Below are positions 31,832 to 64,000 of a DNA stretch of 64,000 nt, in pieces (the first letter of the stretch is position 1; every line of letters begins with the position of its first letter). Source of the DNA: Patescibacteria group bacterium (GTDB lineage: Bacteria > Patescibacteriota > Dojkabacteria > GCA-002793355); assembly GCA_016860985.1 (NCBI GenBank), contig BOKM01000001.1:856040-920039 (forward strand), in the 5' to 3' direction. A model generated the notes under the pieces. It saw only the letters and a program-made list of their open reading frames with translations. It made no database searches and was not told where the DNA came from. The translations under genes were made by a program, and so were the position numbers.

Positions 31832-32886
31832 TAGTAAATATTAAGATTTCCGACAATGTTATACAGCGGGAATATGACTGCAAGCGCAACAAGTAGTACA
31901 AAGAACCAAACGACGACAATAAGGAGTGGCTCAATAACAGCAGAAAGTGTTTGAGTGCTTAAATCCATCTTTTTTTGGTAGATGTCACCTATCTTGTTAA
32001 AGATTTCTGGAAGGTGTCCTGATTTTTCGGCTGATGAAACGAGGTTTTGTACAGAGCGAGGAAAAAGGCGGTCAGTTTTTTTGTACTCTGAAAATAGTGC
32101 ACTAAAGGTGACTCCATTTTCTACTCCATGTGCTAAAAATTCATAAAATTTCTGGTATCTCCGAGTCGTTGTGTAATCTCTCAAAAAGTTTAAACCATCG
32201 GTGATAACGATACCAGAGTTACTTAAGAGTCCAAGCAAAAAGCCGAATCGTGCAATTTCAATCTGTCGAAAAATATCCTTAATTCCTGGAAGTCTGAATA
32301 GTAGTTCTTGTCCCCAATGTTTTGTTTGTTTATTAATAAACAGAAGGTAAATAATGAGAGCAACAAAAAGGAAAAATAGAGGCGCAACAATGTATCCGTA
32401 CTTTTGTAAAAAAGTACCTGCGGCAAGAAGAAAAAGCGTAATTGCAGGTAATTCTCCCCCAAGCTTCGAGAAAGTTTCTGAAATTTTAGGGAGAATAACA
32501 AAAGCATTTACGCCTCCGAGTACAATAACCATAGCCAAAATAAAAGCCGGATATATTGAGGCAGCAACAACCTTAGACTTAAATTCTTTGTCTCGAGCGT
32601 ATTGCGCAGCAACCATAGATAACTGCTCTTTTAGTTTTCCAGATTGTTCTCCGGTTCGGATAAATGAGAGGAATTGCTCTGGAATAATATTCGTGCCTCG
32701 AAACGCTTGCCACAGTTGGTCACCACTATCTACCCTGTCTCGGATTTTTGCAATCTTTTGCTTGAGATCCTTTTGAGAAACTTCCTCTTCTAGAGATAAT
32801 AGTGCAGTACTCACATCCATACCCGCTTCAAGAAGAATCGAAAGTTGCTCGAGTACAAAGCTTTTTTCGTCGTTATTTCTGGCCAT
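31831..32886 (-). CDS. pilC: type IV pilus assembly platform protein PilC/GspF family
   Basis: 351 aa polytopic membrane protein with T2SS-F-like cytoplasmic domains; operon position between PilB and pilins. Confidence 0.7.
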   Translation of the reverse strand: MARNNDEKSFVLEQLSILLEAGMDVSTALLSLEEEVSQKDLKQKIAKIRDRVDSGDQLWQAFRGTNIIPEQFLSFIRTGEQSGKLKEQLSMVAAQYARDKEFKSKVVAASIYPAFILAMVIVLGGVNAFVILPKISETFSKLGGELPAITLFLLAAGTFLQKYGYIVAPLFFLFVALIIYLLFINKQTKHWGQELLFRLPGIKDIFRQIEIARFGFLLGLLSNSGIVITDGLNFLRDYTTTRRYQKFYEFLAHGVENGVTFSALFSEYKKTDRLFPRSVQNLVSSAEKSGHLPEIFNKIGDIYQKKMDLSTQTLSAVIEPLLIVVVWFFVLLVALAVIFPLYNIVGNLNIY

Positions 32887-32887
32887 G

Positions 32888-34555: not shown

Positions 34556-34916
34556 GGAGCAGTTTTTTTACATAATCTACGATATCCTTAATCGGTGTAT
34601 TCGATTTTACAAAATATTCCTTTGCACCTAACGCCTTTACTCTGGCGACATCTTCTTCTTGACTCAAATTTGAAAGAACAATGACATCTAACGTAATTTT
34701 ATCTTTTGCAAGATTTTCTAAAACAGTAAAACCGTCCATCTCTGGGAGCATAAGATCAAGCAAGAGAAGGTCAATGTGAGTTGACTTTACACGGTCAAGA
34801 CACTCCCGACCATTACCTGCAATCAGGACATCCATTCCTTCCCTTTTAAGTTTTAAACTCAATGCAGTTGCTAATGGCTTTTCATCGTCAACAACGAGTA
34901 CGGTTTTCACCTTCAT
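34539..34916 (-). CDS. single-domain response-regulator receiver (PilH/CheY-like), first gene of pilus operon 1
   Basis: 125 aa; VLVVDDEKPL…LLLLDLMLPEMDG…K; overlaps pilB start. Confidence 0.7.
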   Translation of the reverse strand: MKVKTVLVVDDEKPLATALSLKLKREGMDVLIAGNGRECLDRVKSTHIDLLLLDLMLPEMDGFTVLENLAKDKITLDVIVLSNLSQEEDVARVKALGAKEYFVKSNTPIKDIVDYVKKLLHEQTQ

Positions 34917-49760: not shown

Positions 49761-51620
49761 ATGCCACTGCCCTATACTGGTGTTGATATGCGCTTGCTCT
49801 CTGCTCTTGTTGAGCGTGGTCTTATAAAGTCCGAAGTTTCTGAGCAGATAAAGCTTGAATGCGCCCAACAAAACAAATCTGAAATTCAGCTGATTCTTGA
49901 AAAAAAGCTCGTTTCAGAGCGCGATTTATTCAAAACAAAGGCTGCAGTTTATAACGTTCAGTTCATTGATGACGTCTCTGCAATTCAGCCTCCGGCTGAG
50001 CTCATGGTCGGGATTAATATTGACGCCCTTCGAGAGCAACAGTCTTTTCCATTCGAAATGACGGATACTCGCGTCAAAATTCTTATGTCTGATCCGTTCA
50101 ATATTAACGCGATTCAATTCTGGAAGGTTAAATATTTGCCAAGGCAAATTGAGGTTTACACTGCAACTCCATCTGAGGTCGCCTCATATATCGGAACTCG
50201 ATTTGGAAGCATGATCGGCGGTGATGTTCAGGCTGCAGTTTCAAGTTATCAACAAGAGGCAGGTATCAAAGAAACCGTTATTTCTACAGATGACGTCGGA
50301 GATGTTTCACAGAATCTGCAAGGCGCACCTGTTGCCAAAATCGTAAACTCAGTATTGGTATTTGCAGCACAGGCAGGAGCTTCCGATATTCACATTGAAC
50401 CTCAAGAAAAAAGTGTTCGTATTCGATACCGTGTAGATGGTGTATTAACAGAGAAATTAACCCTTCCGAGGGAACTTCTCTCTCCTGTAATTGCAAGAAT
50501 CAAAATCATGTCCAATATGAAAATAGACGAAACTCGATTACCTCAAGATGACCGTCTGTTCATTGCAGTTGGTGATAGAAAATTTGACTTACGTGTTTCT
50601 ACTCTTCCATCTGTGCAAGGAGAAAAGATCGTCATGCGTTTGTTGGAACGAACCTCAGGTATTCCGCCATTGGAAGAATCTGGGTTAAGAGGGTCTGGAT
50701 ACAAACGATATATGGAGAGTATTAGTCTTACAAACGGAATCGTATTGGTTACAGGTCCAACCGGTAGCGGTAAAACAAGAACTTTGGCGAGTACGGTTTC
50801 TCGACTTAATGATCCAAAAGTAAATATTATCTCAATTGAAGATCCAGTCGAAATTAGAATTCCAGGTGTTACTCAAGTACAGGTTAACCACGATATCGGA
50901 CTTGATTTCGCAACTGTACTTCGAGCAGTCTTACGTCAAGACCCCAATATTGTATACCTAGGTGAAGTTCGTGACGAAGAAACCGCACGATTGGCAATCA
51001 GAGCTGCGCTTACCGGTCACTTGGTACTCTCAACTTTGCACACTAATGGTGCTGTTGCCTCTCTGGTACGTTTGATTGACATGGGGATTGAACCTTTCTT
51101 GGTAGCATCTACTGTTAAATGTGTTGTAGCTCAGCGTTTGGTAAGAACTATCTGTCCACATTGCCGTGTTGCCGAAATGGCGAGCCCAGAAATGATTGCA
51201 GAAATCAATCATATACTCGGGGGCATTCAAAACTTTGACGTAGTTCGTTATGTAGAATCAATTGCAAAGCGTGCAGCTGTTACCCCTGATGATCCGGCTT
51301 TCAAGTTTTCTCCTCCTGTTAAGTCACCAGAAATGTCCCCCGAAGGGAGAAAAACAATATATCTTTACAAAGGGGAAGGTTGTTCAAAGTGTGGAGGAAC
51401 TGGATATAAAGGTCGTATGGCAATATTTGAAGTCGCAACGGTGACCGATAAGGTCGCTTCTGGAATTGCACGAAACGCAGAGTTTGATTCGTTAGAAAAA
51501 CTTGCAGAAGAAGAAGGCATGATTACCATGGTACAAGATGGATACTTAAAAGCAATTGAGGGTATCACTACAATTGAAGAAGTAGCCCGTGTGGCCAAGA
51601 GTGATAGTGAAATAACGTAA
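49761..51620 (+). CDS. pilB: type IV pilus assembly ATPase PilB
   Basis: N-terminal GspE_N domains, Walker A VTGPTGSGKTRTLAS, C-terminal Cys4 (CPHC…CSKCGGTGYKGR). Confidence 0.85.
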   Translation: MPLPYTGVDMRLLSALVERGLIKSEVSEQIKLECAQQNKSEIQLILEKKLVSERDLFKTKAAVYNVQFIDDVSAIQPPAELMVGINIDALREQQSFPFEMTDTRVKILMSDPFNINAIQFWKVKYLPRQIEVYTATPSEVASYIGTRFGSMIGGDVQAAVSSYQQEAGIKETVISTDDVGDVSQNLQGAPVAKIVNSVLVFAAQAGASDIHIEPQEKSVRIRYRVDGVLTEKLTLPRELLSPVIARIKIMSNMKIDETRLPQDDRLFIAVGDRKFDLRVSTLPSVQGEKIVMRLLERTSGIPPLEESGLRGSGYKRYMESISLTNGIVLVTGPTGSGKTRTLASTVSRLNDPKVNIISIEDPVEIRIPGVTQVQVNHDIGLDFATVLRAVLRQDPNIVYLGEVRDEETARLAIRAALTGHLVLSTLHTNGAVASLVRLIDMGIEPFLVASTVKCVVAQRLVRTICPHCRVAEMASPEMIAEINHILGGIQNFDVVRYVESIAKRAAVTPDDPAFKFSPPVKSPEMSPEGRKTIYLYKGEGCSKCGGTGYKGRMAIFEVATVTDKVASGIARNAEFDSLEKLAEEEGMITMVQDGYLKAIEGITTIEEVARVAKSDSEIT

Positions 51621-51631
51621 TTACGAAAGAA

Positions 51632-53245
51632 ATGGACTTAAACACAGGAATTCCAATACAAAACCCAAGCACACAATTGCCGCCAGTACCACAGCAAAGT
51701 CCTACTCTTCCAAGTTTTGTTGATCCTGTGACGTCAACGGCTGCACCACTACCTTCCATGCCCCCAGTATCAGGAACTCCTGCTGATCTTCCACCTCTAG
51801 AAGATGTTGAACATTCTCAAGCGTTTGTAGATACACTGTCTGCGTTAAAAGATTTGTCTGCAAAAACGGCAGAAATACCCTTAGACTCAACGCCGGCTGT
51901 TACGGGTGATAGCCCAATAAATGAGTCTGTGAACTCTGTTGAACAGCCACCACAAGATATTCAAGAGAGTACCCCGGTTGTTCCATCTACACCAGTGGTA
52001 GAGATTAAAACACAAACTGAACCTGACATATCAACATTAACTCCACCTGTTTCTACACCTGTGCTTGAAACAGAGCTCCCTGCTCCACCTACTCAAGAGC
52101 AAATTCCTGTTACTGCTTCACCACAATTACCCGATGCTGTTATGGCACCGTTTGCTCCAGTCGGTAATATTCCAATGTCTGGCGCCTACGAAACAAAGAA
52201 ATTACTTGATATTGTTGTGCAAAAGGATGCTTCCGATTTACACCTCGTGGTAGGTTATCCTCCTATGATTCGTGTAGATGGAGATTTAGTCACGGTTGGA
52301 AGCACAATTCTCGACCCCAAAATGGCAAAGGAACTTGTCTATTCTGTTTTGCCAGATGATAAAAAAGAGCAACTTGAAGTTAACCGCGAGGTAGATCTTG
52401 CTTACCAACACGAAGGTGCTGGGCGATTTCGTATTAATGCGTATTGGCAGCGCGGGTATATTTCAGGCGCATTTCGTTTGATTCCTACAAGAATACGTAC
52501 AATTGACGAGTTAAAACTTCCACCGCTATTTCATAAATTCGCAGATATGGAACAAGGGCTTGTATTAGTGACTGGTCCAACTGGGCATGGTAAATCAACA
52601 ACCCTCGCTTCTGTTATTCACGAAATAAACATGAAGCATCCAAAGCATATTTTGACAATTGAAGATCCGATTGAATACGTATTTCCTCAGCAAAAAGCTC
52701 TCGTTTCTCAGCGAGAATTGGGTGATGATACCCATTCCTGGAAAGGTGCACTTCGTTCTGCCCTTCGTGAAGACCCTGATGTAGTACTTGTCGGAGAAAT
52801 GCGTGACTTAGAAACTATTTCTGCTGCAATAACTGTCGCAGAAACAGGTCACTTGGTATTTGCTACCTTGCACACAAACAATGCAGCGCAAACAATTCAA
52901 CGTATTGTGAACATGTATCCTGATGTACAGCAAGAGGAGATTCGTTCTGAACTTGCAGATGTACTTGAGGCAGTGGTCGCGCAGCGTTTAATTCCAGTAA
53001 AAGGTGGAGGTCGTAGAGCTGCACTCGAAGTCATGCTTATGACACCTGCTATCAGAAACCTTATTCGCGAAAACAAAATATATCAAATCGACAACATTAT
53101 CCGCACAAGTATGGACGTAGGCATGATTACGCTTGAAAAATCACTTCTCACTTTCTTTAGAGAAGGGTTGATTTCGCAAGAAGATGCACTGCGTTACGCG
53201 CTCGATGCAACTGAAATGGCAAGATTACTTGAAGAACTAGTCTAA
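51632..53245 (+). CDS. pilT: type IV pilus retraction ATPase PilT/PilU family with ~180-aa Pro/Thr/Ser-rich N-terminal extension
   Basis: Core LLDIVVQKDASDLHL…VTGPTGHGKSTTLASVIHEIN…GEMRDLETI…AHLVFATLHT is PilT-like; preceded by low-complexity PxP-rich sequence in the same ORF, 12 nt after pilB stop. Confidence 0.8.
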   Translation: MDLNTGIPIQNPSTQLPPVPQQSPTLPSFVDPVTSTAAPLPSMPPVSGTPADLPPLEDVEHSQAFVDTLSALKDLSAKTAEIPLDSTPAVTGDSPINESVNSVEQPPQDIQESTPVVPSTPVVEIKTQTEPDISTLTPPVSTPVLETELPAPPTQEQIPVTASPQLPDAVMAPFAPVGNIPMSGAYETKKLLDIVVQKDASDLHLVVGYPPMIRVDGDLVTVGSTILDPKMAKELVYSVLPDDKKEQLEVNREVDLAYQHEGAGRFRINAYWQRGYISGAFRLIPTRIRTIDELKLPPLFHKFADMEQGLVLVTGPTGHGKSTTLASVIHEINMKHPKHILTIEDPIEYVFPQQKALVSQRELGDDTHSWKGALRSALREDPDVVLVGEMRDLETISAAITVAETGHLVFATLHTNNAAQTIQRIVNMYPDVQQEEIRSELADVLEAVVAQRLIPVKGGGRRAALEVMLMTPAIRNLIRENKIYQIDNIIRTSMDVGMITLEKSLLTFFREGLISQEDALRYALDATEMARLLEELV

Positions 53246-54468
53246 TGGAAGAAAAAAAATTGTATGAATATGTCGCAGTAGGAAAAGATGGGAATCGTAC
53301 AAAAGGTTCGATGACTGCGCTTAATAAAGAAGAGGTAGTTACACAACTTTTCCAGAAAGGACTATCGCCTGTTTCAGTCGATGAGGTATCAAAATTGTTT
53401 GCACTTGATAGATTAAAAGAGGTAAACATTGGTGGGGTTCCGCTCAAAGACAAGATGATCTTCTTGAAGCAGTTCTCTATCATGTTAAACGCTGGTTTGT
53501 CGATTACTCGGGCACTTGAGGTATTAAGTATGCAAACCACCAATCCTCGGTTTAAGGTGGTACTTAAAGAGGTATTGAAGTCCGTATCGGGTGGTGTACA
53601 GCTTTCAGATTCTTTTGCAAAATACCCAGATGTATTCGATTCAATTGCAATAAACCTAATCAAAGCTGGTGAACAAAGTGGAAACCTTGGTCTCATTCTC
53701 CGTAAGCTTTCGCGTGAATATGAACAGAAAAATGCGTTAAAAAGTAAAGTCACGTCAGCACTCGCATACCCTGCAGTTCTTACAGTGGTAATGATTGGTG
53801 TAGTTGTGTTTCTGCTTGCAATTGTAGTGCCGCAATTAGAAGATGCCTTTAAGTCCTTTGGGGCGGAACTTCCATGGATTACCAAAGCTGTTATTGGGTT
53901 AAGTAAGGTAATTACAAATTATTGGTATCTAGTGCTTCTTGTGCTTATTGGTGGTGCGGTTGGCATTAAGTATTTTGTTTCAACCCCAGAAGGTCGTCGA
54001 GTATGGGATAAAATACTCATTACGGTCCCAGTATTTGGTCCATTGTTTGTCAAAATACAGGTTGCAACCTTTAGCCGGGTACTATATTTGCTTATCAGCA
54101 GCGGTGTCCCAATTCTTCAGACCTTAGAACTTACTGAAGCGACTTTAAGTAATATTTGGTTTAAAGACGAAGTGATCTCAATGCGTGATCAGGTAAAACG
54201 AGGTGTTTCTATTGCCGTACCGCTGTTACAAAGTCCTTACTTCCCTTCCATTGTTGGGTATATGGTTAATGTTGGACAAGAAACGGGTCAGCTTGATACT
54301 GTGCTTCGCAAGGTTGCAAAATATTACGATTTGGAGATTAAGACGGCAACGTCGACACTTTCATCACTACTTGAGCCAATTCTTCTCGTGGTGATGGGTG
54401 GAGTTGTAGGTGTAATTGTTGCCGCTATTTACTACCCAATGTTCCAATTGACACAGTCAATAAAATAG
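53245..54468 (+). CDS. pilC: type IV pilus assembly platform protein PilC
   Basis: 407 aa; two T2SS-F repeats, 3-4 TM segments; start overlaps pilT stop. Confidence 0.8.
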   Translation: MEEKKLYEYVAVGKDGNRTKGSMTALNKEEVVTQLFQKGLSPVSVDEVSKLFALDRLKEVNIGGVPLKDKMIFLKQFSIMLNAGLSITRALEVLSMQTTNPRFKVVLKEVLKSVSGGVQLSDSFAKYPDVFDSIAINLIKAGEQSGNLGLILRKLSREYEQKNALKSKVTSALAYPAVLTVVMIGVVVFLLAIVVPQLEDAFKSFGAELPWITKAVIGLSKVITNYWYLVLLVLIGGAVGIKYFVSTPEGRRVWDKILITVPVFGPLFVKIQVATFSRVLYLLISSGVPILQTLELTEATLSNIWFKDEVISMRDQVKRGVSIAVPLLQSPYFPSIVGYMVNVGQETGQLDTVLRKVAKYYDLEIKTATSTLSSLLEPILLVVMGGVVGVIVAAIYYPMFQLTQSIK

Positions 54469-54512
54469 TCTATTCTGAAACGTATTAAGGTATTTAACAT
54501 TGCTCAATTTAT

Positions 54513-55088
54513 ATGAAACTTAAAGCATTTACCCTCGTGGAGCTTCTCGTCGTAATGGCGATTATCAGCTTCCTTTCTGTCGGTGCATTTGCCGGCTTAA
54601 GCTATGGACTCCGACAATCTCGTGATGTTCAAAAGAAAAAGCTTGTAGACCTAGCTCACACTGCACTTCAAGCATATTATGCAGATTATGCAGCATATCC
54701 AAAATGTAACGGTGCACCCTCTACTGTCACAGGGTTAACTGGTGGTTGGTATTACTGCCCAGGTGCTTTTCCAATTAGAGGTCAAGCAGGTTCAGGTTTC
54801 TTGATAACTTCTGGCGGTATTACAGGTTTAATGGACTATCTTGAAGGTGAATGGCCAACTTCAAACTCTAATGCTGATCCAGCTGCTGGTGATAAATATC
54901 TGAGATACTATATTAATACAGGCAGCGGTGGCGCAAGCGGAACCCCACTTAAATTCGCAGTTTGTATAACAGTCGAAAACAAGAACGGAAACTCAAACCT
55001 TACCCGAAAGGGCACAACGGTTAAAGACTGTTACTGTGCAGGTGCCGAGTATGCAGAGGTTTCCTGTGCTGGTATGGATGGTCGTTAG
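54513..55088 (+). CDS. type IV pilin (probable major pilin), prepilin-type N-terminal methylation domain
   Basis: MKLKA|FTLVELLVVMAIISFL, Glu+5, C-terminal Cys pair (CYCAGAEYAEVSC). Confidence 0.75.
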   Translation: MKLKAFTLVELLVVMAIISFLSVGAFAGLSYGLRQSRDVQKKKLVDLAHTALQAYYADYAAYPKCNGAPSTVTGLTGGWYYCPGAFPIRGQAGSGFLITSGGITGLMDYLEGEWPTSNSNADPAAGDKYLRYYINTGSGGASGTPLKFAVCITVENKNGNSNLTRKGTTVKDCYCAGAEYAEVSCAGMDGR

Positions 55089-55111
55089 GTCATTCGTTAG
55101 TTAACTCTGTT

Positions 55112-55873
55112 ATGTCACAAGATCAGATTATAATCCTTGCATTCGCTTTTTCTGGTCTTGTGCTTTCAGAGTATGTGCAGCTCATTTCTGATCGTGGTTC
55201 ATTTCTCGATTCCTTGTGGGGGCGTTCTCAGTGTGATTCATGTAAATCGACTATCCCTTGGTTCGGATTAATACCTCTTTTGGGACGTTTTTTACTTAAG
55301 GGTTCGTGTCCAACTTGCGGTAAGCATGTGAGTTGGAAATATTTTCAGTTTGAAGTGATTTTTGGTTTAGGGTGGATAGCTTCCTTGGCTTTCTTTTATA
55401 TCAATTCCATTACTTCCCCACTTATACTTGCTGTCTATCTTCTTCTCTATTGTACTTCGTGGTTACTCATGTACGAGGATGGAAAGCATTATTCTGTTCC
55501 AGTTTCTTGGCTTATTTCTTGGGGAATTACGTACGTGTTGGCGTGGTTCTTTACCTCGTCTACTCATCAGGTATACCCTCCAGATACACTTCTTATGGCG
55601 GCGACACTAGGATTGGCTTTAGTCAGTGTTGCATTAAGAAAACCAAAGGAAGAAAGAGGTATTTCACAGTTATTTGGTGCTGCTGACTTTATTGTGCTGT
55701 TTCTGTTTGTCTTGTTGTTAGGTTTTCAGTACACCACCGTTATTTTAGTGCTAACAATGATTAATGCTGTGCTTTACTTACTTATGAGAAAACAGCTAAA
55801 GGCAGGGCAAAGACTACCTTTGCTTACTGTAATGCTCCCTTGGGGATATGTGCTCCTTTTTCTATTGTTTTGA
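55112..55873 (+). CDS. pilD: prepilin peptidase (A24 family)
   Basis: N-terminal CDSCKSTIPW…CPTCGKHVSW tetracysteine zinc motif, polytopic membrane body; TGA stop. Confidence 0.75.
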   Translation: MSQDQIIILAFAFSGLVLSEYVQLISDRGSFLDSLWGRSQCDSCKSTIPWFGLIPLLGRFLLKGSCPTCGKHVSWKYFQFEVIFGLGWIASLAFFYINSITSPLILAVYLLLYCTSWLLMYEDGKHYSVPVSWLISWGITYVLAWFFTSSTHQVYPPDTLLMAATLGLALVSVALRKPKEERGISQLFGAADFIVLFLFVLLLGFQYTTVILVLTMINAVLYLLMRKQLKAGQRLPLLTVMLPWGYVLLFLLF

Positions 55874-55875
55874 TT

Positions 55876-56430
55876 CTAACGGATTGACACATTTATAAAT
55901 CGCGAGATGTTCTTTACGGCTGGTTCTTCTCCAAGTTTCGCAGTTGACTCCATTGTGTAGGTGAGATTCACATTCGCAACTTGTGCCTCATCAAAATCTG
56001 GTGTTTCACATGTGAAGGCTAAACTCGTAACTTTTACATCTGCATACGTTAGGACTGTTTCACAAACGGGGGTGGTCGCCTGTGCCATACAGAAACGGTA
56101 TTTGTCATCAGCTTCTTTTTGACCGTAAAAAATGAACGTGTCACTTGCCCCTTTTGGTTGCCACGTCACGCTTTTTATTGGATCATTTGGTGCCGAACAT
56201 TTTATTGATCGTGGGTCAGCATTCTTAATACGTAGCTTAAAGTATTCACCTACAAACTCACTTTCGTTTCTGACGGCTGTTCTTGCATCGATAAGGTATG
56301 AGCCGAGTAATAAGGTATTAAACGACTGCACTATCATCACAAAAATCAAAGAAATTAAAGTCATCGCGATGATCGTCTCAAGAAGAGTAAAGCCAGCGAT
56401 TTTCGTTTCTACATGCTTATTGTGGTCCAC
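55876..56430 (-). CDS. minor pilin (prepilin-type N-terminus)
   Basis: …KIAG|FTLLETIIAMTLISLIFV, Gly-1/Glu+5. Confidence 0.6.
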   Translation of the reverse strand: MDHNKHVETKIAGFTLLETIIAMTLISLIFVMIVQSFNTLLLGSYLIDARTAVRNESEFVGEYFKLRIKNADPRSIKCSAPNDPIKSVTWQPKGASDTFIFYGQKEADDKYRFCMAQATTPVCETVLTYADVKVTSLAFTCETPDFDEAQVANVNLTYTMESTAKLGEEPAVKNISRFINVSIR

Positions 56431-57046
56431 TTGTTCGGTACAATTGAAAGCTTAGCTTAAAGGGTTTAAAGGTCGTACTGTCGCACATACCTTCAATACA
56501 GGCAACAATTATTTCAATATTTGCATCATTTGGCGAGTCCTGCGCTTCTGTGAACTCCTTTTGGTCGTTGTCTTTTCGTACGATTATTCGGCCAAAAAGC
56601 TTTTTGTTAAAATTATCTTCAACCTCGTTGGCGGCGGTTAACGCACAGTCGTTGCCTGAAAGATAGCCGGTAGCTTCTTCAAAATGACAGGTATCGTAAG
56701 TAAGTCGCGTAAGTTTTGGTTTTACGTTTGGGTCGCTTACATCAAGATAACCCATTGGTTGTTGCGTTATTGGCGAATTATTTACGGCAGGAGGAATGGC
56801 GGCATTTTCTCCAAAACTGTTCTGCCAATCGGTGTCTTTTGTGTTGTAAACTACCTGTACAACCTCGGTCGCATAATTGCGCATCTTATCTTGAAGTTCT
56901 AGTGTTTTTGTTCGCTTTAAAGAATCAAACGTCATCTGCAAAAGTGACGAAAAAACAAAAGCTGCAACGGCAAGTGCGACAAGAACTTCGATTAAGGTCA
57001 TTGCTGTGATTGTGCGATTAGGTTGTGGTTGCATTGATTTCACCAT
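56417..57046 (-). CDS. minor pilin (prepilin-type N-terminus)
   Basis: …RTITA|MTLIEVLVALAVAAFVF, Ala-1/Glu+5. Confidence 0.6.
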   Translation of the reverse strand: MVKSMQPQPNRTITAMTLIEVLVALAVAAFVFSSLLQMTFDSLKRTKTLELQDKMRNYATEVVQVVYNTKDTDWQNSFGENAAIPPAVNNSPITQQPMGYLDVSDPNVKPKLTRLTYDTCHFEEATGYLSGNDCALTAANEVEDNFNKKLFGRIIVRKDNDQKEFTEAQDSPNDANIEIIVACIEGMCDSTTFKPFKLSFQLYRTSGPQ

Positions 57047-57704
57047 TGTTTTTAAGGTTAAGCTTTATACGGTACCTTTCTTTGTCCAAGTATTCAATCT
57101 GAACTTTGAGATCAAGGTTGGCACCAAGCGAAACGTCGATACCACTGGTATTTCTGCAATACGCGTGTAATTTTCCGTTAATGGATTCGTAAATAATTGT
57201 TAACGCAGTTGTGCAAGTGGTCGCTCCATTGGAAATGACAAAATTCATACCGAGTGGCAAAATCTGCGCTGTCGTATTGTCAATTTTTCTGAGAATAAGC
57301 TCATTAGAGCCATAGCCACCACAGGAGTTTGGATTACCATCCCACTCAAGCTCTAAGCAAGGGTCACCACTGGGGAAGGATTGATAAAAATAGTTGTTTG
57401 AAACTGGGTTGCTGAGTGCCTTTACTTGTAGCATTTGCCATTGCTTGGTGGTGTTACTGTACTCGAACCGAAAGCCAATTCCTTGGACCCACTCTCGTTC
57501 GCTTGAGTTACGAGTGATAAGCATTGATTTTCTTCGGAGGATTCGCGCATTTTGTACTGCTGTTTTAATGTATTGTTGTGCAATAAAGGTGTCTCGCGCT
57601 CTTTGAGTAAAACCTGAGGAAAGAAGAAGTATGACTCCAAATATGACAAGTACAACGAGTAACTCGAGTAATGTGTAGGCGTTAGTTCGCCTTGGTGCAG
57701 TCAT
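57018..57704 (-). CDS. minor pilin (prepilin-type N-terminus)
   Basis: …RTNA|YTLLELLVVLVIFGVILLL, Ala-1/Glu+5. Confidence 0.6.
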   Translation of the reverse strand: MTAPRRTNAYTLLELLVVLVIFGVILLLSSGFTQRARDTFIAQQYIKTAVQNARILRRKSMLITRNSSEREWVQGIGFRFEYSNTTKQWQMLQVKALSNPVSNNYFYQSFPSGDPCLELEWDGNPNSCGGYGSNELILRKIDNTTAQILPLGMNFVISNGATTCTTALTIIYESINGKLHAYCRNTSGIDVSLGANLDLKVQIEYLDKERYRIKLNLKNNGEINATTT

Positions 57705-57722
57705 GCCTCATGGTAGCATTTT

Positions 57723-59600
57723 TTACCAAGAACCGCCACCGCCACCGCCGCTTCCTCCTCCGCTGAACCCGCCGCCGCCACTAAACGAAGAACCACTTGA
57801 ACGAGGTGGTGTTGAAATTTTAGTCATAGAAGATGCAACGTTGTTTGCAAGTGATGCGTAGGTTCTTGGAAGTGCATGTGTAAGGGGAACATCGCTTGTC
57901 ATCCAGGTTGGAGAGTAGTTAAGTTGTTCAAGTACTGGACCAAAGGCAGAAGACCATTTCTTATCTAGTCCAAAAATAATGGCAAAAGGTAATAGTTCTT
58001 CAAAATGAGCAATCATTTTTTGTGGATCGTTAAAGAATTCTAGTCGTCTTAATTCTGCGGTCTTAATGTATTTTTTTAACCCGAGAAGTTCACGAGTTAT
58101 AACCTCTCCTTCTTTCGTACGTTTGAGCATACGAGCACCAAATATAAAAAACATTGCAGCACTTATGCCGAGCGCAAATGGGAGGATAAACGGAGTGACA
58201 CCTTCGGTAGTTCCCTCCCCTATCATTGCGAGTAGAATCACTGCGCCAGCAGCGCAAAAGCCCCCAAGAACGTAAAACTTTTTTTGCAGACCTTCGGACT
58301 GGTCTGTTGTATAAGGGAGCTGTTCAAATTCTTTGCCGGCATCTGAATTAATTCGTTGAATAGCGGTATCAACATTTTTAAGGGTATGAATTGCTGATTC
58401 AGCACTGTAATTTCTTGTGAGTACTTCTATCATTTCTTTTAGCGAAGAAGGTGCTTTGTCGAGATATTCCTCTAATTTCGGTCGTTGTGAGTCAGAGATT
58501 TTTAACGTGACTTTTCCTTTTGTAAAGTCGATAGTAAGAAGGTTTTGTTCCGCAATTTTAATGAGTTCGGCGAGTGTTGCCAGGGGCTTTTTATTCATCG
58601 ATAGCAACGAGCTATATGCACTCAAACTGCCATTTTTCAATTCGTCAGAAACAATGAATTGTGGTGGGATGGCAGATAAAGGAAGATCTTTTCCGTGTTT
58701 CTTCCATGTGAAATACCCATATATTCCGACAAATACAGGAATGAGTAGTGATACATATGGAAGTATTGCCAAAATTTTCTCAAGTAACTGTTCTGAAGCG
58801 CTAGGGGGAGAGAACGAATTGTCGGGGAATTTTAATGCTATCGTTAGCCCTTGCGCTAACGAAGAACTCGGCACCGTTGTGGAAAAATAGGTATCACTCG
58901 CTCTGGATGAAATTTGACACTGTGTTTCGGTTGATCCTGATACCCCTGTATAGCACCGACTTTCTGTTGGTTGATGTGGTGAAGTAATGCGCGCGGTCGC
59001 TGCAATTATAGGTATTTCCCATTGATCTCCTGTGATATTGAGGTATAACTCTTGGTAACCATCTTGGAACCTAACCGAATGCTTCATTTCATACGTAATA
59101 GTAAATTCGTATGCTCCTTGAATGAGTGTGTCAGCTTCACCAATCTTCAGTACAGTATAGTTACCTTTTGATTTACTTGAACTGTAAGCACTTGTGGTAG
59201 TTCCTTGTAAATCGCCAATCTGGCTAGGAAGTTTTTTGTAGTTGACCGAATCAATGGTTATTGGCTGTTTTAGTTTTTTGCCGCTATCAAGAATAACTTC
59301 ATTTGGAATCCATCGATAAATACCGTGTCTTTCGTTAGGAAAATATACAATAATTTTTTCTGTAATGGTTGCGGTGCCGTTTTGCGCAAGCTCTACTACT
59401 GAATCAAAATTAGTAATTATGCCGTCAGCGTATCTTTGTGGCGCACCGGTATCACTTACTGATTTTTTTACAGATTCTTGGGTATGTGTTTGCCCCGCGG
59501 TTGCAGCATCTACGGTTGGGAGTGCTGCGAAACTCGTACCAATAATAACAACCAAAAGCGTAATCGCAAAAAAGTAACGAGGTATCTTATCGAAACCCAT
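57723..59600 (-). CDS. DUF2207-family membrane protein with Gly/Ser-rich C-terminal tail
   Basis: 625 aa; signal peptide, large extracytoplasmic domain, 2-3 TM segments, C-terminus SSGSSFSGGGGFSGGGSGGGGGGSW. Confidence 0.6.
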   Translation of the reverse strand: MGFDKIPRYFFAITLLVVIIGTSFAALPTVDAATAGQTHTQESVKKSVSDTGAPQRYADGIITNFDSVVELAQNGTATITEKIIVYFPNERHGIYRWIPNEVILDSGKKLKQPITIDSVNYKKLPSQIGDLQGTTTSAYSSSKSKGNYTVLKIGEADTLIQGAYEFTITYEMKHSVRFQDGYQELYLNITGDQWEIPIIAATARITSPHQPTESRCYTGVSGSTETQCQISSRASDTYFSTTVPSSSLAQGLTIALKFPDNSFSPPSASEQLLEKILAILPYVSLLIPVFVGIYGYFTWKKHGKDLPLSAIPPQFIVSDELKNGSLSAYSSLLSMNKKPLATLAELIKIAEQNLLTIDFTKGKVTLKISDSQRPKLEEYLDKAPSSLKEMIEVLTRNYSAESAIHTLKNVDTAIQRINSDAGKEFEQLPYTTDQSEGLQKKFYVLGGFCAAGAVILLAMIGEGTTEGVTPFILPFALGISAAMFFIFGARMLKRTKEGEVITRELLGLKKYIKTAELRRLEFFNDPQKMIAHFEELLPFAIIFGLDKKWSSAFGPVLEQLNYSPTWMTSDVPLTHALPRTYASLANNVASSMTKISTPPRSSGSSFSGGGGFSGGGSGGGGGGSW

Positions 59601-59605
59601 TATTG

Positions 59606-60169
59606 TTAGAACTCAACTTTAACTGGTTCCTTTTCTTCGTCAGCTGCAGCAAAGAATTCTGCGGGCGTGAATTTCATAAGGTTGGCAAGCAGAACATTTG
59701 GGAAAACCTGAATCTTTGTGTTGTATTCACCAACAGTTGCATTATAGTAACGTCGTGATTTCTGTATTTCTGTTTCCAGGTCGGATAATTGATTCTGAAG
59801 TTGCAAGAACGAGGCATCAGCCTTTAGGTTAGGGTAATTTTCTGCAACAGCAAAGAGAGATTTAAGCGTAGAGGTCATTTCGTTGTTTAACGCTGAAAGT
59901 TCTGCCATGCTCCCACCTGATGCCTGCATTTTTGTTCTGAGTTCGGTAACTTTGGTAAATACTCCCTCTTCATGTTTTGCGTAACCTTTTACTGTGTTGA
60001 CCAAGTTAGGCACCATATCAAAGCGCTTTTTCAAGAGAGTCTCAATATCTGCAGAGGCCTCTTTTACTAACATTCTTTGTTGAACAAGAACGTTGTAAAG
60101 ACTAATAGCAAAAAATACAATTGCAACTGCGATCGCTGCAACTCCAAATAAAACTGAACCAAGCATCAT
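59606..60169 (-). CDS. lemA: LemA family protein
   Basis: 187 aa; N-terminal TM then LVQQRMLVKEASADIETLLKKRFDMVPNLVNTVKGYAKHE…YNATVGEYNTKIQVFPNVLLANLMKF matches LemA throughout. Confidence 0.75.
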   Translation of the reverse strand: MMLGSVLFGVAAIAVAIVFFAISLYNVLVQQRMLVKEASADIETLLKKRFDMVPNLVNTVKGYAKHEEGVFTKVTELRTKMQASGGSMAELSALNNEMTSTLKSLFAVAENYPNLKADASFLQLQNQLSDLETEIQKSRRYYNATVGEYNTKIQVFPNVLLANLMKFTPAEFFAAADEEKEPVKVEF

Positions 60170-60217
60170 ACAAAAAATAACCTTAGTTATTGATTATCGT
60201 TGCTTCTGACAAGATTG

Positions 60218-62872
60218 TCAATTCGAAGGGATAAGCGTGTCGAAATCGATATCTTGCGGATTTTTTCCAGTTGCTTGTTGAGACTGCAAGATATTCTTCG
60301 CAAGTGCCGTTTCTAGTGAATCTTGTAGTACTCTTCGTAGTGGTCTGGCTCCCATTCCTGGAGAATACCCGTGCGAGACAATATAGGCGATGGTCTTATT
60401 CGTGTAGGTTGACCTGATTCCCTGCTCTGCGAGCTTACTTACCAACTCGTTTACCATAAGCACCGCAATTTGCTGAAGATGTTCAAGTGAAAGTGCACCA
60501 AACACTACTACTTTATCAAATCGATTGATAAGTTCGACTTTAAGATATGTAGGGAGCAAATCAAGGACCTGCAATTTTGCTTCTTCAAACTTATCTGGCG
60601 GTGTTTTAAGAAGTAAATCGCTACCGATGTTACTTGTTGCAATTATGATCGCATTATTAAAATATAAGGTTTCGTCTTCGGGCGTTACTACGATTCCCTC
60701 GTCAAACAAGCGCATGAAGATGTCGTGAATTGCGGGAGTTGTTTTTTCGAACTCGTCAAGCAACAGGAGTGTATAAGGTCTGACCGTTACCTTTTTTAGT
60801 TGATTGATAATGGTTGGAATGTCGTCGTCCCTTTTGTACTGAGAAAGATCAATACGAATGAGCGAAAAATCGCTGCCAAAATATTCTTTTGCGGTAATTT
60901 TTGCTAATTCAGTTTTTCCTACACCTGAAGGACCGAGAAACAGGAATACTCCGAATGGGTGGCCAGTATTTCGAATGTTGGTTTTTGCTCGTTGTAACGA
61001 ATCTACTATTGCAAGTACGGCATCATGTTGGTTTACATATTTTTGATGAATTCTTTTTTCAAGGGTGAGCAATTTCTCTGCTTCTTCTGGTGATGCTTGC
61101 GCAACTGGAATATCTGATAACGTTTGAATGACTTGAGTAACAAGCTCTCTCGTCAACTTTCGCTCTTTTGTATTTGCAGCCTGAGCTGCTGCTTGTTCTA
61201 ATAATTCCACTGCTTTTTTGGGGAAGCGTTTGTTAGGTTGATAGGTCGCGGTCAGTGTAATGACCTCCTTTAGTGCAGGTATACTAATCGAGATTTTGTG
61301 CATTTTTTCTAGTTGGTCAATCTTGGTCGTTAGAATGGTGAACGTGTCTTCTTCGGAGACTTGGTCAACACGGACCTCTTTGAATGCATCGATGAGTGTT
61401 GGGTACCTTTCTTTAAGTTTTGTATATTGGGCAAAGGTCATGGTTCCCACAATTGGAACAGGACTTTCCAATAAAAGTGGCATTAGATATGATATTGCCG
61501 TCCCCTCGCCTACCCCCGTCGAAAGCAGAACTTCCAAATCATCAAAATATAAAATGGTGCCAACCTGTTTTCTGAGTTCCTCTGATAATTTTTGAACAAG
61601 CTCCGGAAGTCCACCCTGACCTGCCGATGCCAACGAAAGGAACTTGTTAATATCAACAGTTTTAATCGTGAGATTCTTTAATGCTGGTGGAATATCTCCT
61701 TCGAGGATTCTTTGTGCAAGACCGTATATTATACTGCTCTTTCCAACACCCGGATCGCCTACGAGAACTGCATTGGCGTCGTATTCCTTCTGTAAAATAC
61801 CGATGAGGTTGTTAATCTCTTTTGTATGACCGACTCCATAAATACCTCCTCTATTGTTGACCTGCTCGAGAACATTCGTTGAGATTTTATCGAGATAAAA
61901 AGTGTATCCTTTTACCCAGCCATCGGCCACGCCCCCTTTCGCATAGTACGGTTGTGAAATGTCGAAGGCGTTTGTTCTTGCTTGGTACTGTTCATTGATG
62001 ATGTACCACTCGATTGTTTTAACAAATGTCATAAAATCTACTTTCTGTTCTTGGAGTACCTCTTTAAGCACTGGAAAAATCGCAAAAAGTGCAAGCAGTA
62101 GGTGCTCAGGATATACCCGTTTACTTTTGGTCAGTATCGCCTGCTCAGTTGCATACAGTACAAAAGACTGTACCGCAGTGTAATCGTATTGTGGCGCACT
62201 CTCTGGTGTCAGCTGTACGGCACTCAATCTTTTTTGCGCTTCGGGAATATCGAGGCGGGTCAGTACCCGAATCACGTGCTCATGAGAAAGGATTGTTTTT
62301 AGAAGTTTGGCTGTATCTAGGATAGTCCCTTGTTTTGTTGTAGTAAGTGCATTCACTATTAAGTCAAAGGTAACTGGGTGAAAGTAATCCAGCGGCTGCT
62401 GGATAAGATATTGTTGAAACTGAACGCCCTGATTTTCTAGTGAACTTTTTAAAAAGTCATCAATCTTTGGGTAGGTGACTAACAGTTTGTGCGCATCAAA
62501 ATTTGTTGCAACTTCATGCCACAAAATTAAAAGTGCGAGTGCTGCGAGAAAGATTATCTCTTTGATTAGTACTAGCAGCGAGTGTGGTAATGTCGTACTG
62601 CTTAACGCAAGTGTTTGCATTACATAGATAATCGAGAGAGGAATGGCTGCAATAAGTAGCGAAGTCGATACTACTCGTTTTATCTTTCTGAACGCAATCA
62701 TCGCCTTATAGCTTTTGAGACGCTCGGTTAGTTCTTGTAAAGATAGAAAGAATAGGTCAAACTGGGTAATCAAAAAGGGCTCGTATTGAGAATCAATAAT
62801 TACTGCATGGTTATCATACAATTGGGATTTATCTTGCAACTTGTCGTGAAAGGCAGTAATAACGTTACTCAT
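60218..62872 (-). CDS. ClpA/ClpB/ClpC-like double-AAA+ ATPase with N-terminal transmembrane anchor
   Basis: 884 aa; two hydrophobic helices in first ~120 aa, Clp_N-like repeat region, D1 Walker A GDPGVGKSSIIYGLAQRI, D2 Walker A LFLGPSGVGKTELAK, D2 small domain GARPLRR. Confidence 0.7.
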   Translation of the reverse strand: MSNVITAFHDKLQDKSQLYDNHAVIIDSQYEPFLITQFDLFFLSLQELTERLKSYKAMIAFRKIKRVVSTSLLIAAIPLSIIYVMQTLALSSTTLPHSLLVLIKEIIFLAALALLILWHEVATNFDAHKLLVTYPKIDDFLKSSLENQGVQFQQYLIQQPLDYFHPVTFDLIVNALTTTKQGTILDTAKLLKTILSHEHVIRVLTRLDIPEAQKRLSAVQLTPESAPQYDYTAVQSFVLYATEQAILTKSKRVYPEHLLLALFAIFPVLKEVLQEQKVDFMTFVKTIEWYIINEQYQARTNAFDISQPYYAKGGVADGWVKGYTFYLDKISTNVLEQVNNRGGIYGVGHTKEINNLIGILQKEYDANAVLVGDPGVGKSSIIYGLAQRILEGDIPPALKNLTIKTVDINKFLSLASAGQGGLPELVQKLSEELRKQVGTILYFDDLEVLLSTGVGEGTAISYLMPLLLESPVPIVGTMTFAQYTKLKERYPTLIDAFKEVRVDQVSEEDTFTILTTKIDQLEKMHKISISIPALKEVITLTATYQPNKRFPKKAVELLEQAAAQAANTKERKLTRELVTQVIQTLSDIPVAQASPEEAEKLLTLEKRIHQKYVNQHDAVLAIVDSLQRAKTNIRNTGHPFGVFLFLGPSGVGKTELAKITAKEYFGSDFSLIRIDLSQYKRDDDIPTIINQLKKVTVRPYTLLLLDEFEKTTPAIHDIFMRLFDEGIVVTPEDETLYFNNAIIIATSNIGSDLLLKTPPDKFEEAKLQVLDLLPTYLKVELINRFDKVVVFGALSLEHLQQIAVLMVNELVSKLAEQGIRSTYTNKTIAYIVSHGYSPGMGARPLRRVLQDSLETALAKNILQSQQATGKNPQDIDFDTLIPSN

Positions 62873-63270
62873 GCTGCAAGGAATGGATTTATGATGATAA
62901 GACCAATTACCACGGGCAGCACTGCAAGCTGTAGAAGGAGTAGCGCAAAGAATAGTCCTAATATGAGAATAAACAATGATCCACTAAGTGGAAGGTAGAT
63001 TGTTTTAATAACCATGCCAACAAGCCATCCTGCAATGTTGTAGTCATTTTTCCAAGGTCTAAAGTATCCGCGAAGAATAACGCCGAAAGATGTTGTATCG
63101 TTAAATACTTGAAATACTCTACGTAGGAGAGCGAATAATGCGAGAGGAATATCTCCATACCACCAACCAAAAAAGGAGCGGACAAAATCAATGGAACTTG
63201 AAAAAATTTGTAAGGTTGTCGGTTTATGCAGGCGCAGGTCTTGAATCATGGGCAGTCTCCTCAGATACAA
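62869..63270 (-). CDS. small polytopic membrane protein
   Basis: 133 aa, ~4 hydrophobic segments; stop overlaps Clp-like start (ATGA). Confidence 0.35.
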   Translation of the reverse strand: MYLRRLPMIQDLRLHKPTTLQIFSSSIDFVRSFFGWWYGDIPLALFALLRRVFQVFNDTTSFGVILRGYFRPWKNDYNIAGWLVGMVIKTIYLPLSGSLFILILGLFFALLLLQLAVLPVVIGLIIINPFLAA

Positions 63271-63847
63271 TATACTCTGTTTGAGCTAAAAATGCTACTC
63301 GATTTAGCCCATAGTCTCGACGTTCTGCTTCTGTTAGGCCGACTGGAATAGGGAGTGTCATTTTTCTTGGATATTTCACAATTATTATAGATCGGGGGCG
63401 CAGGAGTGCTTTTGCTCGGTCCACGAGTTCGAGCATATAATCGCTATATTCATCGGGGCGCATTGCTCGTAAGACAGTAAATGGAGGGTCAATGAATATT
63501 ATGTCAAAGGTTCTTTTTCGTTTTATGGATTTAACCAGAAAATCTATAGCATCTGATTGATAAACTACGCCATTCTCTTTTATGCCAAGTGCAACCAAAT
63601 TGTATTTGATTATTTCTGTCGATTTCGAAGAAATATCGACGAAAATAACTTTCCGTGCTCCACGAGAAAGTGCTTCAATTCCAAAGGCCCCAGTTCCAGC
63701 ATAAAGATCAAGCACCGACGCCCCCTGAATAAAATCCGCCAAAAAATCGAAAATGCTTAAGCGTAAAAGCCTTTGAGTTGGTCGGACGTCTTTTTTAGGA
63801 ACTGCGAGCTTTGCTCTTTTGTATGTTCCTGATGCTATGTAAGCCAT
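63224..63847 (-). CDS. rsmD: 16S rRNA (guanine966-N2)-methyltransferase
   Basis: RPTQRLLRLSIFDFL…VLDLYAGTGAFGIEALSRGARKVIFVD…DPPF, RsmD signature. Confidence 0.75.
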   Translation of the reverse strand: MAYIASGTYKRAKLAVPKKDVRPTQRLLRLSIFDFLADFIQGASVLDLYAGTGAFGIEALSRGARKVIFVDISSKSTEIIKYNLVALGIKENGVVYQSDAIDFLVKSIKRKRTFDIIFIDPPFTVLRAMRPDEYSDYMLELVDRAKALLRPRSIIIVKYPRKMTLPIPVGLTEAERRDYGLNRVAFLAQTEYIVSEETAHDSRPAPA

Positions 63848-64000
63848 ATAAGTATAAAGGTTCCAAGAATTATGCGGTAAAAGCCAGAGAGTTTCATTAC
63901 TGTTAGCGTATGCTTTGAGGTAAATAGCTTCATGAATAGAATACCCAGTCCAAGAGAAAGAAGCATTCCACTTACAAGTACAAAAGGAGGGAGCATCGTT
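63838..64000 (-). CDS. 3' end of a membrane-protein ORF entering from beyond the right edge
   Basis: Open minus-strand frame …MLPPFVLVSGMLLSLGLGILFMKLF… ending at TAG (complement 63838-63840); partial, no identification. Confidence 0.2.

Follow-up and report, generated by a model that had tools for sequence, protein, structure and literature searches.

AAA+ ATPases of the Hsp100 type are usually equated with threading unfoldases. Among other AAA+ systems associated with membranes, torsins have no aromatic pore-loop residues and consist of a single AAA+ module with no arginine finger of its own, this residue being borrowed from a partner, and the small transmembrane proteins LAP1/LULL1 are their partners; Bcs1 acts on folded cargo without classical threading. 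Regarding LemA family proteins, LemA and DUF2207 are encoded by neighbouring genes in Proteiniphilum (PMC12631010), and the htpX and lemA genes of Streptococcus pneumoniae are adjacent and co-regulated (SPD_1138/1139; PMC8546594). In this work, we analysed a stretch of 64,000 nucleotides (nt) from a Patescibacteria group bacterium of the Dojkabacteria lineage (contig BOKM01000001.1, positions 856,040 to 920,039; hereafter, the window), focusing on a row of minus-strand genes that encodes a small membrane protein, a membrane-anchored Clp-like ATPase with two AAA+ modules, a LemA family protein, a DUF2207 protein and three putative minor pilins. According to our preferred reading, to which we assign a probability of about 0.6, genome compaction in Dojkabacteria has brought separate units side by side in this row, which is not one machine, and the small membrane protein and the ATPase constitute a pair that would act as a membrane remodeller without threading. 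Literature searches on LemA/DUF2207, LemA/TPM, Patescibacteria ClpB/transmembrane and membrane-anchored AAA+ Clp proteins of the candidate phyla radiation (CPR) returned no description of the ATPase family, of its partner or of a LemA–pilin link; the small membrane protein and this membrane-anchored Hsp100 paralogue are thus an apparently undescribed pair, found in many Patescibacteria.

The ATPase is sequentially organized in a beta domain (residues 1-42), a transmembrane helical hairpin (approximately 45-123), a Clp_N double repeat (approximately 165-290), a degenerate first AAA+ module (D1) and a second AAA+ module (D2). Walker A motifs at residues 372 and 647, together with a D2-small domain, identify it as a two-module protein of the class-1 Hsp100 type, with Pfam matches to AAA_2 (E-value 2e-25), AAA_lid_9 (E-value 1.3e-11) and ClpB_D2-small (E-value 7.6e-20). 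The Clp_N region received no Pfam call, and was recognized by profile-profile comparison with canonical N-domains using hhalign (probability 99.1%, E-value 1e-18, 124 columns). Two N-terminal hydrophobic helices were found both by hydropathy scan and in an AlphaFold2 model of the full protein, which was built from 15 sequences, displayed a mean predicted local distance difference test (pLDDT) score of 70.6 and was used for the N-terminal architecture only. By sequence, the nearest solved structure is Thermus thermophilus ClpB (1qvr, E-value 6.5e-88). However, the features that define the known Hsp100 subgroups are missing: the M-domain of ClpB corresponds to an alignment gap of more than 100 columns, with 353 bits against TIGR03346 versus a cut-off of 1232, and the ClpP-docking (I/L)G(F/L) loop of ClpC (VLGFGEGG in the canonical protein P0042) is a gap in all members of the family, with 308 bits against TIGR02639 versus a cut-off of 993. 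Overall, the NCBIfam scores of the ATPase lie far under the ClpB, ClpA, ClpV, ClpK and ClpG cut-offs.

Inspection of the catalytic and pore-loop motifs revealed distinct states in the two modules. In the window protein, D1 has an intact Walker A motif, a Walker B that reads FDD versus IDE, and DAFKE at the place of the ERRFQ arginine-finger motif, while D2 carries canonical Walker A, Walker B, sensor 1, arginine finger and sensor 2 motifs. In the alignment with canonical ClpB and ClpC, the D2 pore loop (GAPPGYVGYEEGG) is deleted, with a loss of 12-13 residues, and neither the KYRG motif of D1 nor the GYVG motif of D2 is present. These states extend to the whole family. Across 165 sequences, the Walker A lysine of D2 is found in 165, the Walker B DE in 163-164, the sensor 1 asparagine in 163, the arginine finger in 161 and the sensor 2 arginine in 164, so that D2 has the motif set of an active AAA+ ring and is predicted to be an ATPase; the Walker B glutamate of D1 is retained in 56 sequences and its arginine fingers in 28 and 19, a pattern that does not correspond to an active module. 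The D2 loop is variable in length and sequence and contains no aromatic residue in 131 of 167 sequences, and D1 is likewise without an aromatic. Since the D2 loop drifts in length and sequence while the ATPase motifs are fixed, relaxed selection appears to have acted on the gripping loops; conversely, the D2 ATPase and its trans arginine finger have been kept by selection, which would imply an oligomeric ring. The pair therefore challenges the equation of Hsp100 with a threading unfoldase, given that the D2 ATP site is strictly selected and both substrate-gripping loops have decayed, and it may let the AAA+ field study, as a natural experiment, how a Clp-type ring works without threading.

The family was collected by exhaustive profile search, with clusters at 50% identity as representatives and 104 canonical ClpB/ClpC sequences as controls. 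An N-terminal hydrophobic segment and the absence of both GYVG and KYRG were common to 134 of the 149 representatives listed beyond those of the query clade itself, whereas each of these motifs occurred in 103 of the 104 controls. A broad profile search for further members retrieved candidates dominated by canonical ClpB/ClpC, and no new family members. Because there is no ClpP-docking loop and there are no pore loops, the names currently given to these proteins, 'ATP-dependent Clp protease ATP-binding subunit' and 'ClpC', are misleading. Nine loci (L001-L009) belong to the same clade as the window, the nearest genome matches being Candidatus Dojkabacteria (WS6, Patescibacteria/CPR) assemblies, and three of them (L001, L004 and L008) also encode, a few kilobases (kb) away, a soluble Hsp100 of canonical type whose pore loops are intact. 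In view of this soluble protein, the membrane form is an extra paralogue.

The one constant partner of the ATPase is the small membrane protein. A hidden Markov model of this protein matched the open reading frame directly upstream of the ATPase gene in 17 of 18 loci, often with an ATGA overlap between both genes, and in locus L011 (6001-8643) the small protein forms the N-terminal part of the ATPase itself, a natural fusion (P0134). In the reverse direction, starting from three distant small proteins, the next gene encoded the ATPase each time. The small-protein family comprises 122 clusters whose names are 'hypothetical protein' only, except for one Joint Genome Institute label, 'fatty acid desaturase' (P0383); the protein has no Pfam or NCBIfam match, and its length is 111-134 amino acids (aa) in the nine loci inspected outside the clade. 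Its AlphaFold2 model (pLDDT 89.9) consists of two long helices, and a Foldseek comparison of this model with the PDB yielded nothing with an E-value under 5. The fusion protein P0134 keeps a half-degenerate D2 loop, GPPPGQADFELGGQ, which suggests a stepwise decay of the pore loops within the family. A preliminary description of this locus, made from the DNA sequence, had treated the small membrane protein as incidental, a view that does not agree with its constant presence and its fusion in L011; the N-terminal transmembrane helices that it had assigned to a Clp-family ATPase are borne out by the two hydrophobic helices, and its term 'unfoldase' is doubtful, both pore-loop tyrosine motifs being lost.

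Outside the Dojkabacteria clade, the neighbours of the pair vary. In the nine loci inspected there, no LemA, DUF2207 or prepilin-motif open reading frame was found beside the ATPase family, and the flanking genes are unrelated, with nusB–rnc, mraZ–rsmH–ftsL–PBP (penicillin-binding protein), nusA–infB, tig–clpP and an ABC transporter among them. The rsmD gene lies upstream of the pair in one distant locus (L010), as it does in the window. With regard to cell-wall genes, the pair is located directly upstream of mraZ–rsmH–ftsL–PBP, that is, the dcw cluster, in two unrelated loci (L013, 8527-12784; L015, 8120-10384), adjoins murG and bacA in Dojkabacteria, and is found near a class-A PBP in L011 (1716-3665). 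Such dcw and cell-wall neighbours may point to a connection with the envelope or cell division. In L012 (3000-5998), also named 'Patescibacteria group bacterium', the pair follows tig and clpP with a gap of approximately 2 kb without a called gene, which may hold an uncalled clpX.

Our best guess, drawn from the motif states described above, is that the ATPase is a non-threading, D2-driven membrane remodeller. In the mechanism that we propose, the ATPase ring would be held at the membrane by its own transmembrane hairpins and by the transmembrane helices of its partner; D1 would serve as a nucleotide-binding, non-hydrolysing assembly ring, and hydrolysis in D2 would drive conformational work on membrane-associated clients captured by Clp_N, so that these would be remodelled or assembled with no processive threading, much as by Torsin or Bcs1. 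This membrane ATPase would supplement the canonical soluble ClpC/ClpB-type protein. Ring assembly, a non-threading action and a membrane client are all deduced from sequence, and each is put forward as a prediction. As a large and strongly conserved gene pair in genomes of approximately 1 Mb, from a huge and largely uncultured branch such as Patescibacteria, it is likely important, and it represents a testable candidate for CPR envelope or membrane-protein homeostasis.

Two further readings bear on the pair itself. The first would extend the proposed mechanism to an undescribed, Patescibacteria-wide machine, an analogue of Torsin/Bcs1 in which a D2-driven ring with approximately 20 or more transmembrane helices carries out non-threading envelope work, assembling, gating or remodelling membrane, cell-division or cell-wall complexes, such that the dcw and cell-wall position of the pair (mraZ–rsmH–ftsL–PBP, murG–bacA, PBP1) would be meaningful; we hold this broader reading to be possible and rather doubtful. 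The second is that the ATPase still threads in the manner of Msp1 or FtsH, extracting membrane proteins by means of non-canonical pore residues, with the small protein as adaptor or channel. The invariance of the D2 catalytic motifs and of the trans arginine finger, which implies an active ring, the conserved Clp_N domain and an anchor that sets the ring at the bilayer would all suit such a motor, and some family members retain partial D2 loops (e.g., GAPPGQKGY). Nevertheless, the D2 pore-1 loop is deleted throughout the clade of the window, most other members have lost its aromatic residue, and D1 offers no aromatic in compensation; a threading motor thus seems unlikely to us, yet it deserves to be taken seriously as an alternative.

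The arrangement of the pair in relation to its neighbours in the window is as follows, listed from the upstream end of the row to the convergent genes:

63835..64000, minus strand: bacA/uppP (undecaprenyl-diphosphatase), 3' end only; the upstream unit starts with this gene as far as the window shows, and the gene runs on beyond the window end; its C-terminal peptide matches BacA of L001 and L002, and the orthologue in L005 has a Pfam BacA match.
63224..63847, minus strand: rsmD, 16S rRNA m2G966 methyltransferase, an equivalog by TIGR00095 (131.5 bits, cut-off 117.5), with PF03602 at E-value 1.8e-39.
62869..63249, minus strand: small membrane protein, 126 aa from the ATG at 63249, Pfam-less and directly upstream of the ATPase gene.
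60218..62872, minus strand: Clp-like double-AAA+ ATPase, 884 aa, membrane-anchored (Pfam, NCBIfam, alignments, hhalign, AlphaFold2 model and hydropathy scan).
60193..60221, minus strand: sigma-70-type promoter-like element, TTGACA-17 nt-GATAAT, the best regional match (11 of 12 positions), conserved in the clade.
59606..60169, minus strand: lemA, LemA family protein with one N-terminal transmembrane helix (PF04011, E-value 2.8e-55); first gene of the downstream unit.
57723..59600, minus strand: DUF2207 membrane protein, 625 aa (PF09972 and PF20990), with four hydrophobic segments.
57018..57704, minus strand: prepilin-type protein A, 228 aa, putative minor pilin; N_methyl 27.2 (cut-off 21.2), motif A|YTLLE, orthologues in all clade loci.
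56417..57046, minus strand: prepilin-type protein B, 209 aa, putative minor pilin; motif A|MTLIE found by motif scan, N_methyl 16.2 (below cut-off), weak ComGE and GspI matches.
55876..56430, minus strand: prepilin-type protein C, 184 aa, putative minor pilin; motif G|FTLLE found by motif scan, N_methyl 19.9 (below cut-off).
55112..55873, plus strand: pilD-like prepilin peptidase; A24_N_bact E-value 1.3e-14, Peptidase_A24 22.2 (below the cut-off of 26.5).
49761..55088, plus strand: the remainder of the convergent type IV pilus cluster (cluster 2), which ends with pilD, namely pilB (49761-51620), a second ATPase (51632-53245), pilC (53245-54468) and a pilin gene (54513-55088).

Open reading frames, the sequence itself, Pfam and NCBIfam matches all uphold the eight minus-strand genes of the preliminary description with their coordinates, junctions and domain calls, as well as its observation that the block ends convergently 2 nt from pilD, a gap read directly from the sequence between pilin gene C and pilD; the range under which it had placed the row (57018-63847) omits two of the three pilin genes that its own text names. 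The bacA/uppP gene overlaps the start of rsmD by 13 nt, and rsmD overlaps the small gene by 26-47 nt according to which start codon is taken, ATG 63249 being likelier than the TTG 63270 of the open reading frame listing. The small gene and the ATPase gene share an ATGA overlap (62872-62869). Further downstream, lemA follows the ATPase gene after 48 nt, the DUF2207 gene follows lemA after 5 nt and pilin gene A follows the DUF2207 gene after 18 nt, and the pilin genes overlap by 29 and 14 nt. The 48-nt gap is the largest in the block and among the larger ones of the window, where coding sequence makes up 95%, co-directional neighbours are a median of 14 nt apart and 31 of the 38 gaps between them do not exceed 50 nt. 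With such coding density and such a share of short junctions, the tight spacing of the block is no more than the genome background.

Synteny was examined in the nine clade loci, whose ATPases display 51-82% identity to the window protein. The common order is murG (minus strand), followed by bacA–rsmD–small gene–ATPase–lemA–three pilin genes, convergent on pilD–pilin–pilC–two T2SSE ATPases, and the genes beyond this murG to pilB block differ among loci. The position of lemA is conserved in all of them, and the three pilin genes come next with gaps of 5-42 nt or overlaps. The DUF2207 gene is inserted between lemA and the pilin genes only in L001-L003, the subclade of the window, and is absent from this position in L004-L009. 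The gene order given in the preliminary description is thus conserved in relatives within one Dojkabacteria clade, except for DUF2207 in six of its loci, and was not found in the nine loci inspected outside the clade. Locus L001 (CAZCKT010000016.1) is labelled 'uncultured Candidatus Saccharibacteria bacterium'; with 77% ATPase identity and full Dojkabacteria synteny, this label may be wrong.

The only sizeable gap of the block coincides with a conserved promoter-like element. The best sigma-70-like match in the 55-64 kb region, TTGACA-17-GATAAT (60221-60193, minus strand, 11 of 12 positions), takes in the ATPase stop codon and precedes the ATG of lemA by 52 nt. L001-L004 carry the two hexamers unchanged and always 17 nt apart, while their spacer and flanks vary, and TTGACA-N17-(G/C)ATAAT was found 51-70 nt upstream of the lemA start in eight of the eight clade loci scanned. 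In L004, L005, L007 and L008, the hexamers fall within the coding sequence for the ATPase C-terminal tail, a part that is variable otherwise. Coding constraint was considered as an explanation for this conservation and is unlikely, as the ATPase tail otherwise varies in length and sequence and the hexamers are non-coding or lie across the stop codon in the subclade of the window. A terminator scan between the ATPase gene and lemA revealed no terminator-like site: a weak AT-rich hairpin with a T-run before lemA fell short of the scan criteria, and a terminator-like hit at 60143-60119 was rejected because it is inside the lemA coding sequence.

With this conserved internal element before lemA, the genes from rsmD to pilin C do not fit a single operon under one promoter. 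Rather, lemA, the DUF2207 gene and the three pilin genes, separated by gaps of at most 18 nt or overlapping, are probably one transcription unit from the predicted promoter, which we expect to be used in the cell. The row would then comprise at least two units. Unit 1 would be bacA–rsmD–small membrane protein–Clp-like ATPase, whose functional core would be the last two, translationally coupled genes, and unit 2 would be lemA–DUF2207–three minor-pilin genes, transcribed from the internal promoter.

In the downstream unit, LemA scored 186.7 bits against PF04011 (cut-off 26.2), with its transmembrane segment at residues 6-24. DUF2207 was identified by PF09972 and PF20990 (87.4 and 77.7 bits), and starts with a signal or anchor segment, which is followed by an N-domain facing outward, three more transmembrane helices and a Gly-rich C-terminal tail (GGGGFSGGGSGGGGGGSW). 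The three prepilin-type proteins carry the prepilin motifs A|YTLLE, A|MTLIE and G|FTLLE, in which the bar marks the predicted cleavage site, and are encoded next to the pilD-like gene, with N_methyl above the cut-off for protein A only; a minor-pilin role of A, B and C is thus predicted from their sequence features and position. Among the four prepilins of cluster 2 and the row (54513-57704), three have Ala instead of the usual Gly at position -1 of this site (A|F, A|Y and A|M), and only that at 56430-55876 has G|F.

To place lemA in a broader context, we surveyed 80 metagenomic LemA loci (L018-L097, 42-54% identity), with flanks of up to 6 kb. A co-directional open reading frame lies just downstream of lemA in 53 of them, and in 14 of these 53 informative loci it encodes DUF2207 with the same Gly-rich tail, in support of the earlier view of LemA and DUF2207 as a recurrent pair. 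The commonest LemA neighbour, ahead of DUF2207 (14-16 loci), was an HtpX-like M48 membrane peptidase, present in 28 of the 80 loci and confirmed by Pfam in two, which points to a role of LemA in membrane-protein homeostasis. Conversely, prepilin-motif open reading frames were found in none of the 80 loci within these flanks, by a motif scan that detects all pilins of the window and of the clade loci. Since DUF2207 occurs next to LemA elsewhere and pilins do not in these 80 loci, DUF2207 tracks LemA and not the pilins, and the LemA–pilin adjacency is a feature of one Dojkabacteria clade. A Clp gene near lemA in L090 was considered as a second linkage and rejected, as it encodes a canonical soluble ClpB with GYVG and KYRG at a distance of approximately 2.2 kb. 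Taken together, LemA–DUF2207 is a generic membrane pair that recurs across many bacteria and whose place before the pilin genes is lineage-specific, and the pilins would belong with the convergent pilB–pilT-like–pilC–pilin–pilD cluster. The conserved internal promoter and the LemA partners, either an HtpX-type peptidase or DUF2207, provide leads on the long-unexplained LemA family.

Several points weigh against our preferred reading of separate units and a non-threading pair. Even where ATPase identity drops to 51%, the ATPase–lemA–pilin order persists between outer flanks that differ, which could reflect selection and not inertia, and the lack of a terminator-like site after the ATPase gene makes read-through joining both units possible. 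The comparison outside the clade covers only nine loci, and the names recovered for the family are Dojkabacteria and two 'Patescibacteria group bacterium' only, so that its taxonomic spread is thinly documented. As for the mechanism, D1 of the ATPase was modelled with low confidence (pLDDT 27-50), and the non-threading action is deduced from lost motifs only, other loops being possibly able to grip substrate.

Concerning the downstream unit, Dojkabacteria LemA, with DUF2207 where present, might have been recruited to minor-pilin biogenesis or membrane handling, both being co-expressed from the conserved promoter. The three pilin genes come directly after lemA in every clade locus, no room was seen for another promoter before them, and elsewhere the partners of LemA are likewise membrane-embedded HtpX peptidases and DUF2207. 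However, the 80 LemA loci of other organisms are devoid of prepilin-motif open reading frames within 6 kb, the other type IV pilus cluster of the window (29-35 kb) has no LemA, and at a coding density of 95% unrelated genes are commonly co-transcribed; we therefore regard such a recruitment as a tentative idea, improbable on present data.

The preliminary description had interpreted ATPase, LemA, DUF2207 and the three minor pilins as one envelope module, in which the ATPase would extract or control the quality of pilins or membrane substrates. This view draws on the gene order shared by all nine clade loci, on the missing terminator, and on an ATPase that is located at the membrane and keeps the substrate-binding Clp_N domain. 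Against it, the ATPase gene and lemA are set apart by a conserved promoter; none of the nine outside loci associates the ATPase family with LemA, DUF2207 or pilins; the 80 LemA loci are without pilins and without a transmembrane-type Clp, the single nearby Clp being a canonical ClpB; the ATPase has no pore loops with which to extract substrates by threading; and tight spacing is the norm in this genome. A single module is thus very unlikely, and the claim is not sustained. Finally, the idea that the Clp-like gene is a decaying paralogue, or pseudo-enzyme, without ATP-driven function, which might be suggested by the loss of many canonical Hsp100 features, can practically be discarded, as the five D2 catalytic motifs persist in at least 161 of 165 sequences and more than 130 clusters at 50% identity, the open reading frames are intact at 800-900 aa in genomes of approximately 1 Mb, and the partner gene is conserved and translationally coupled.

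Some additional features of the pilus genes in the window were also observed. The second T2SSE-type ATPase of the convergent cluster (51632-53245, plus strand, 537 aa) has an N-terminal extension of approximately 200 aa, of low complexity and rich in Pro, Ser, Thr and Gln, which is unusual for a PilT/PilB-type motor. The other type IV pilus-like cluster (29020-34916, minus strand), in which no LemA was found, encodes a PilB-like protein (32888-34555), a PilC-like protein (31831-32886) and a prepilin-motif open reading frame (31367-31831), along with a 499-aa LVIVD-repeat protein (29923-31422) and a response regulator (34539-34916) whose gene overlaps the pilB start.

When compared with known systems, the downstream genes resemble described arrangements in their parts. 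The LemA–DUF2207 pair of the window, with its 5-nt gap and Gly-rich tail, matches the pair found in 14 of the 53 informative LemA loci and in Proteiniphilum (PMC12631010); in contrast to other LemA–DUF2207 and LemA–HtpX pairs, LemA or the pair is followed by pilin genes only in the Dojkabacteria clade. The three overlapping prepilin-motif genes, located by pilD, pilC and two T2SSE ATPases and with weak matches to ComGE, ComGF, GspI and GspG, recall the minor pilin operons of type IV pilus and Com-type systems, but they are convergent to the core pilus genes, lie downstream of lemA, and encode Ala at -1 in two of the three.

As for the ATPase, it shares with ClpB, ClpC and ClpA the two AAA+ modules, the Clp_N double repeat, AAA_lid_9, the D2-small domain and the canonical D2 catalytic motifs, and it differs from them in the N-terminal beta domain, the transmembrane hairpin and the obligatory small membrane partner, in the lack of an M-domain and of the LGF/IGF loop, and in the loss of KYRG and the arginine fingers in D1 and of GYVG in D2, with a D1 Walker B glutamate that is often replaced. 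Like FtsH, Msp1 and Bcs1, it has an N-terminal transmembrane anchor that puts an AAA+ ring at the membrane; those proteins, however, belong to the classical AAA clade and have a single module, with functional aromatic pore loops in FtsH and Msp1 and a protease domain in FtsH, and no homology to them was found beyond the AAA+ core. Torsins come close in several respects, namely membrane association, kinship to the Hsp100 D2, the absence of pore aromatics and a small transmembrane partner, and one family member (P0123) carries a precomputed Pfam Torsin match. Nonetheless, the partner of the ATPase is a small helical protein and not AAA-like, and two modules, alongside Clp_N, together with a D2 arginine finger of its own (161 of 165 sequences) exclude the ATPase from the torsins.

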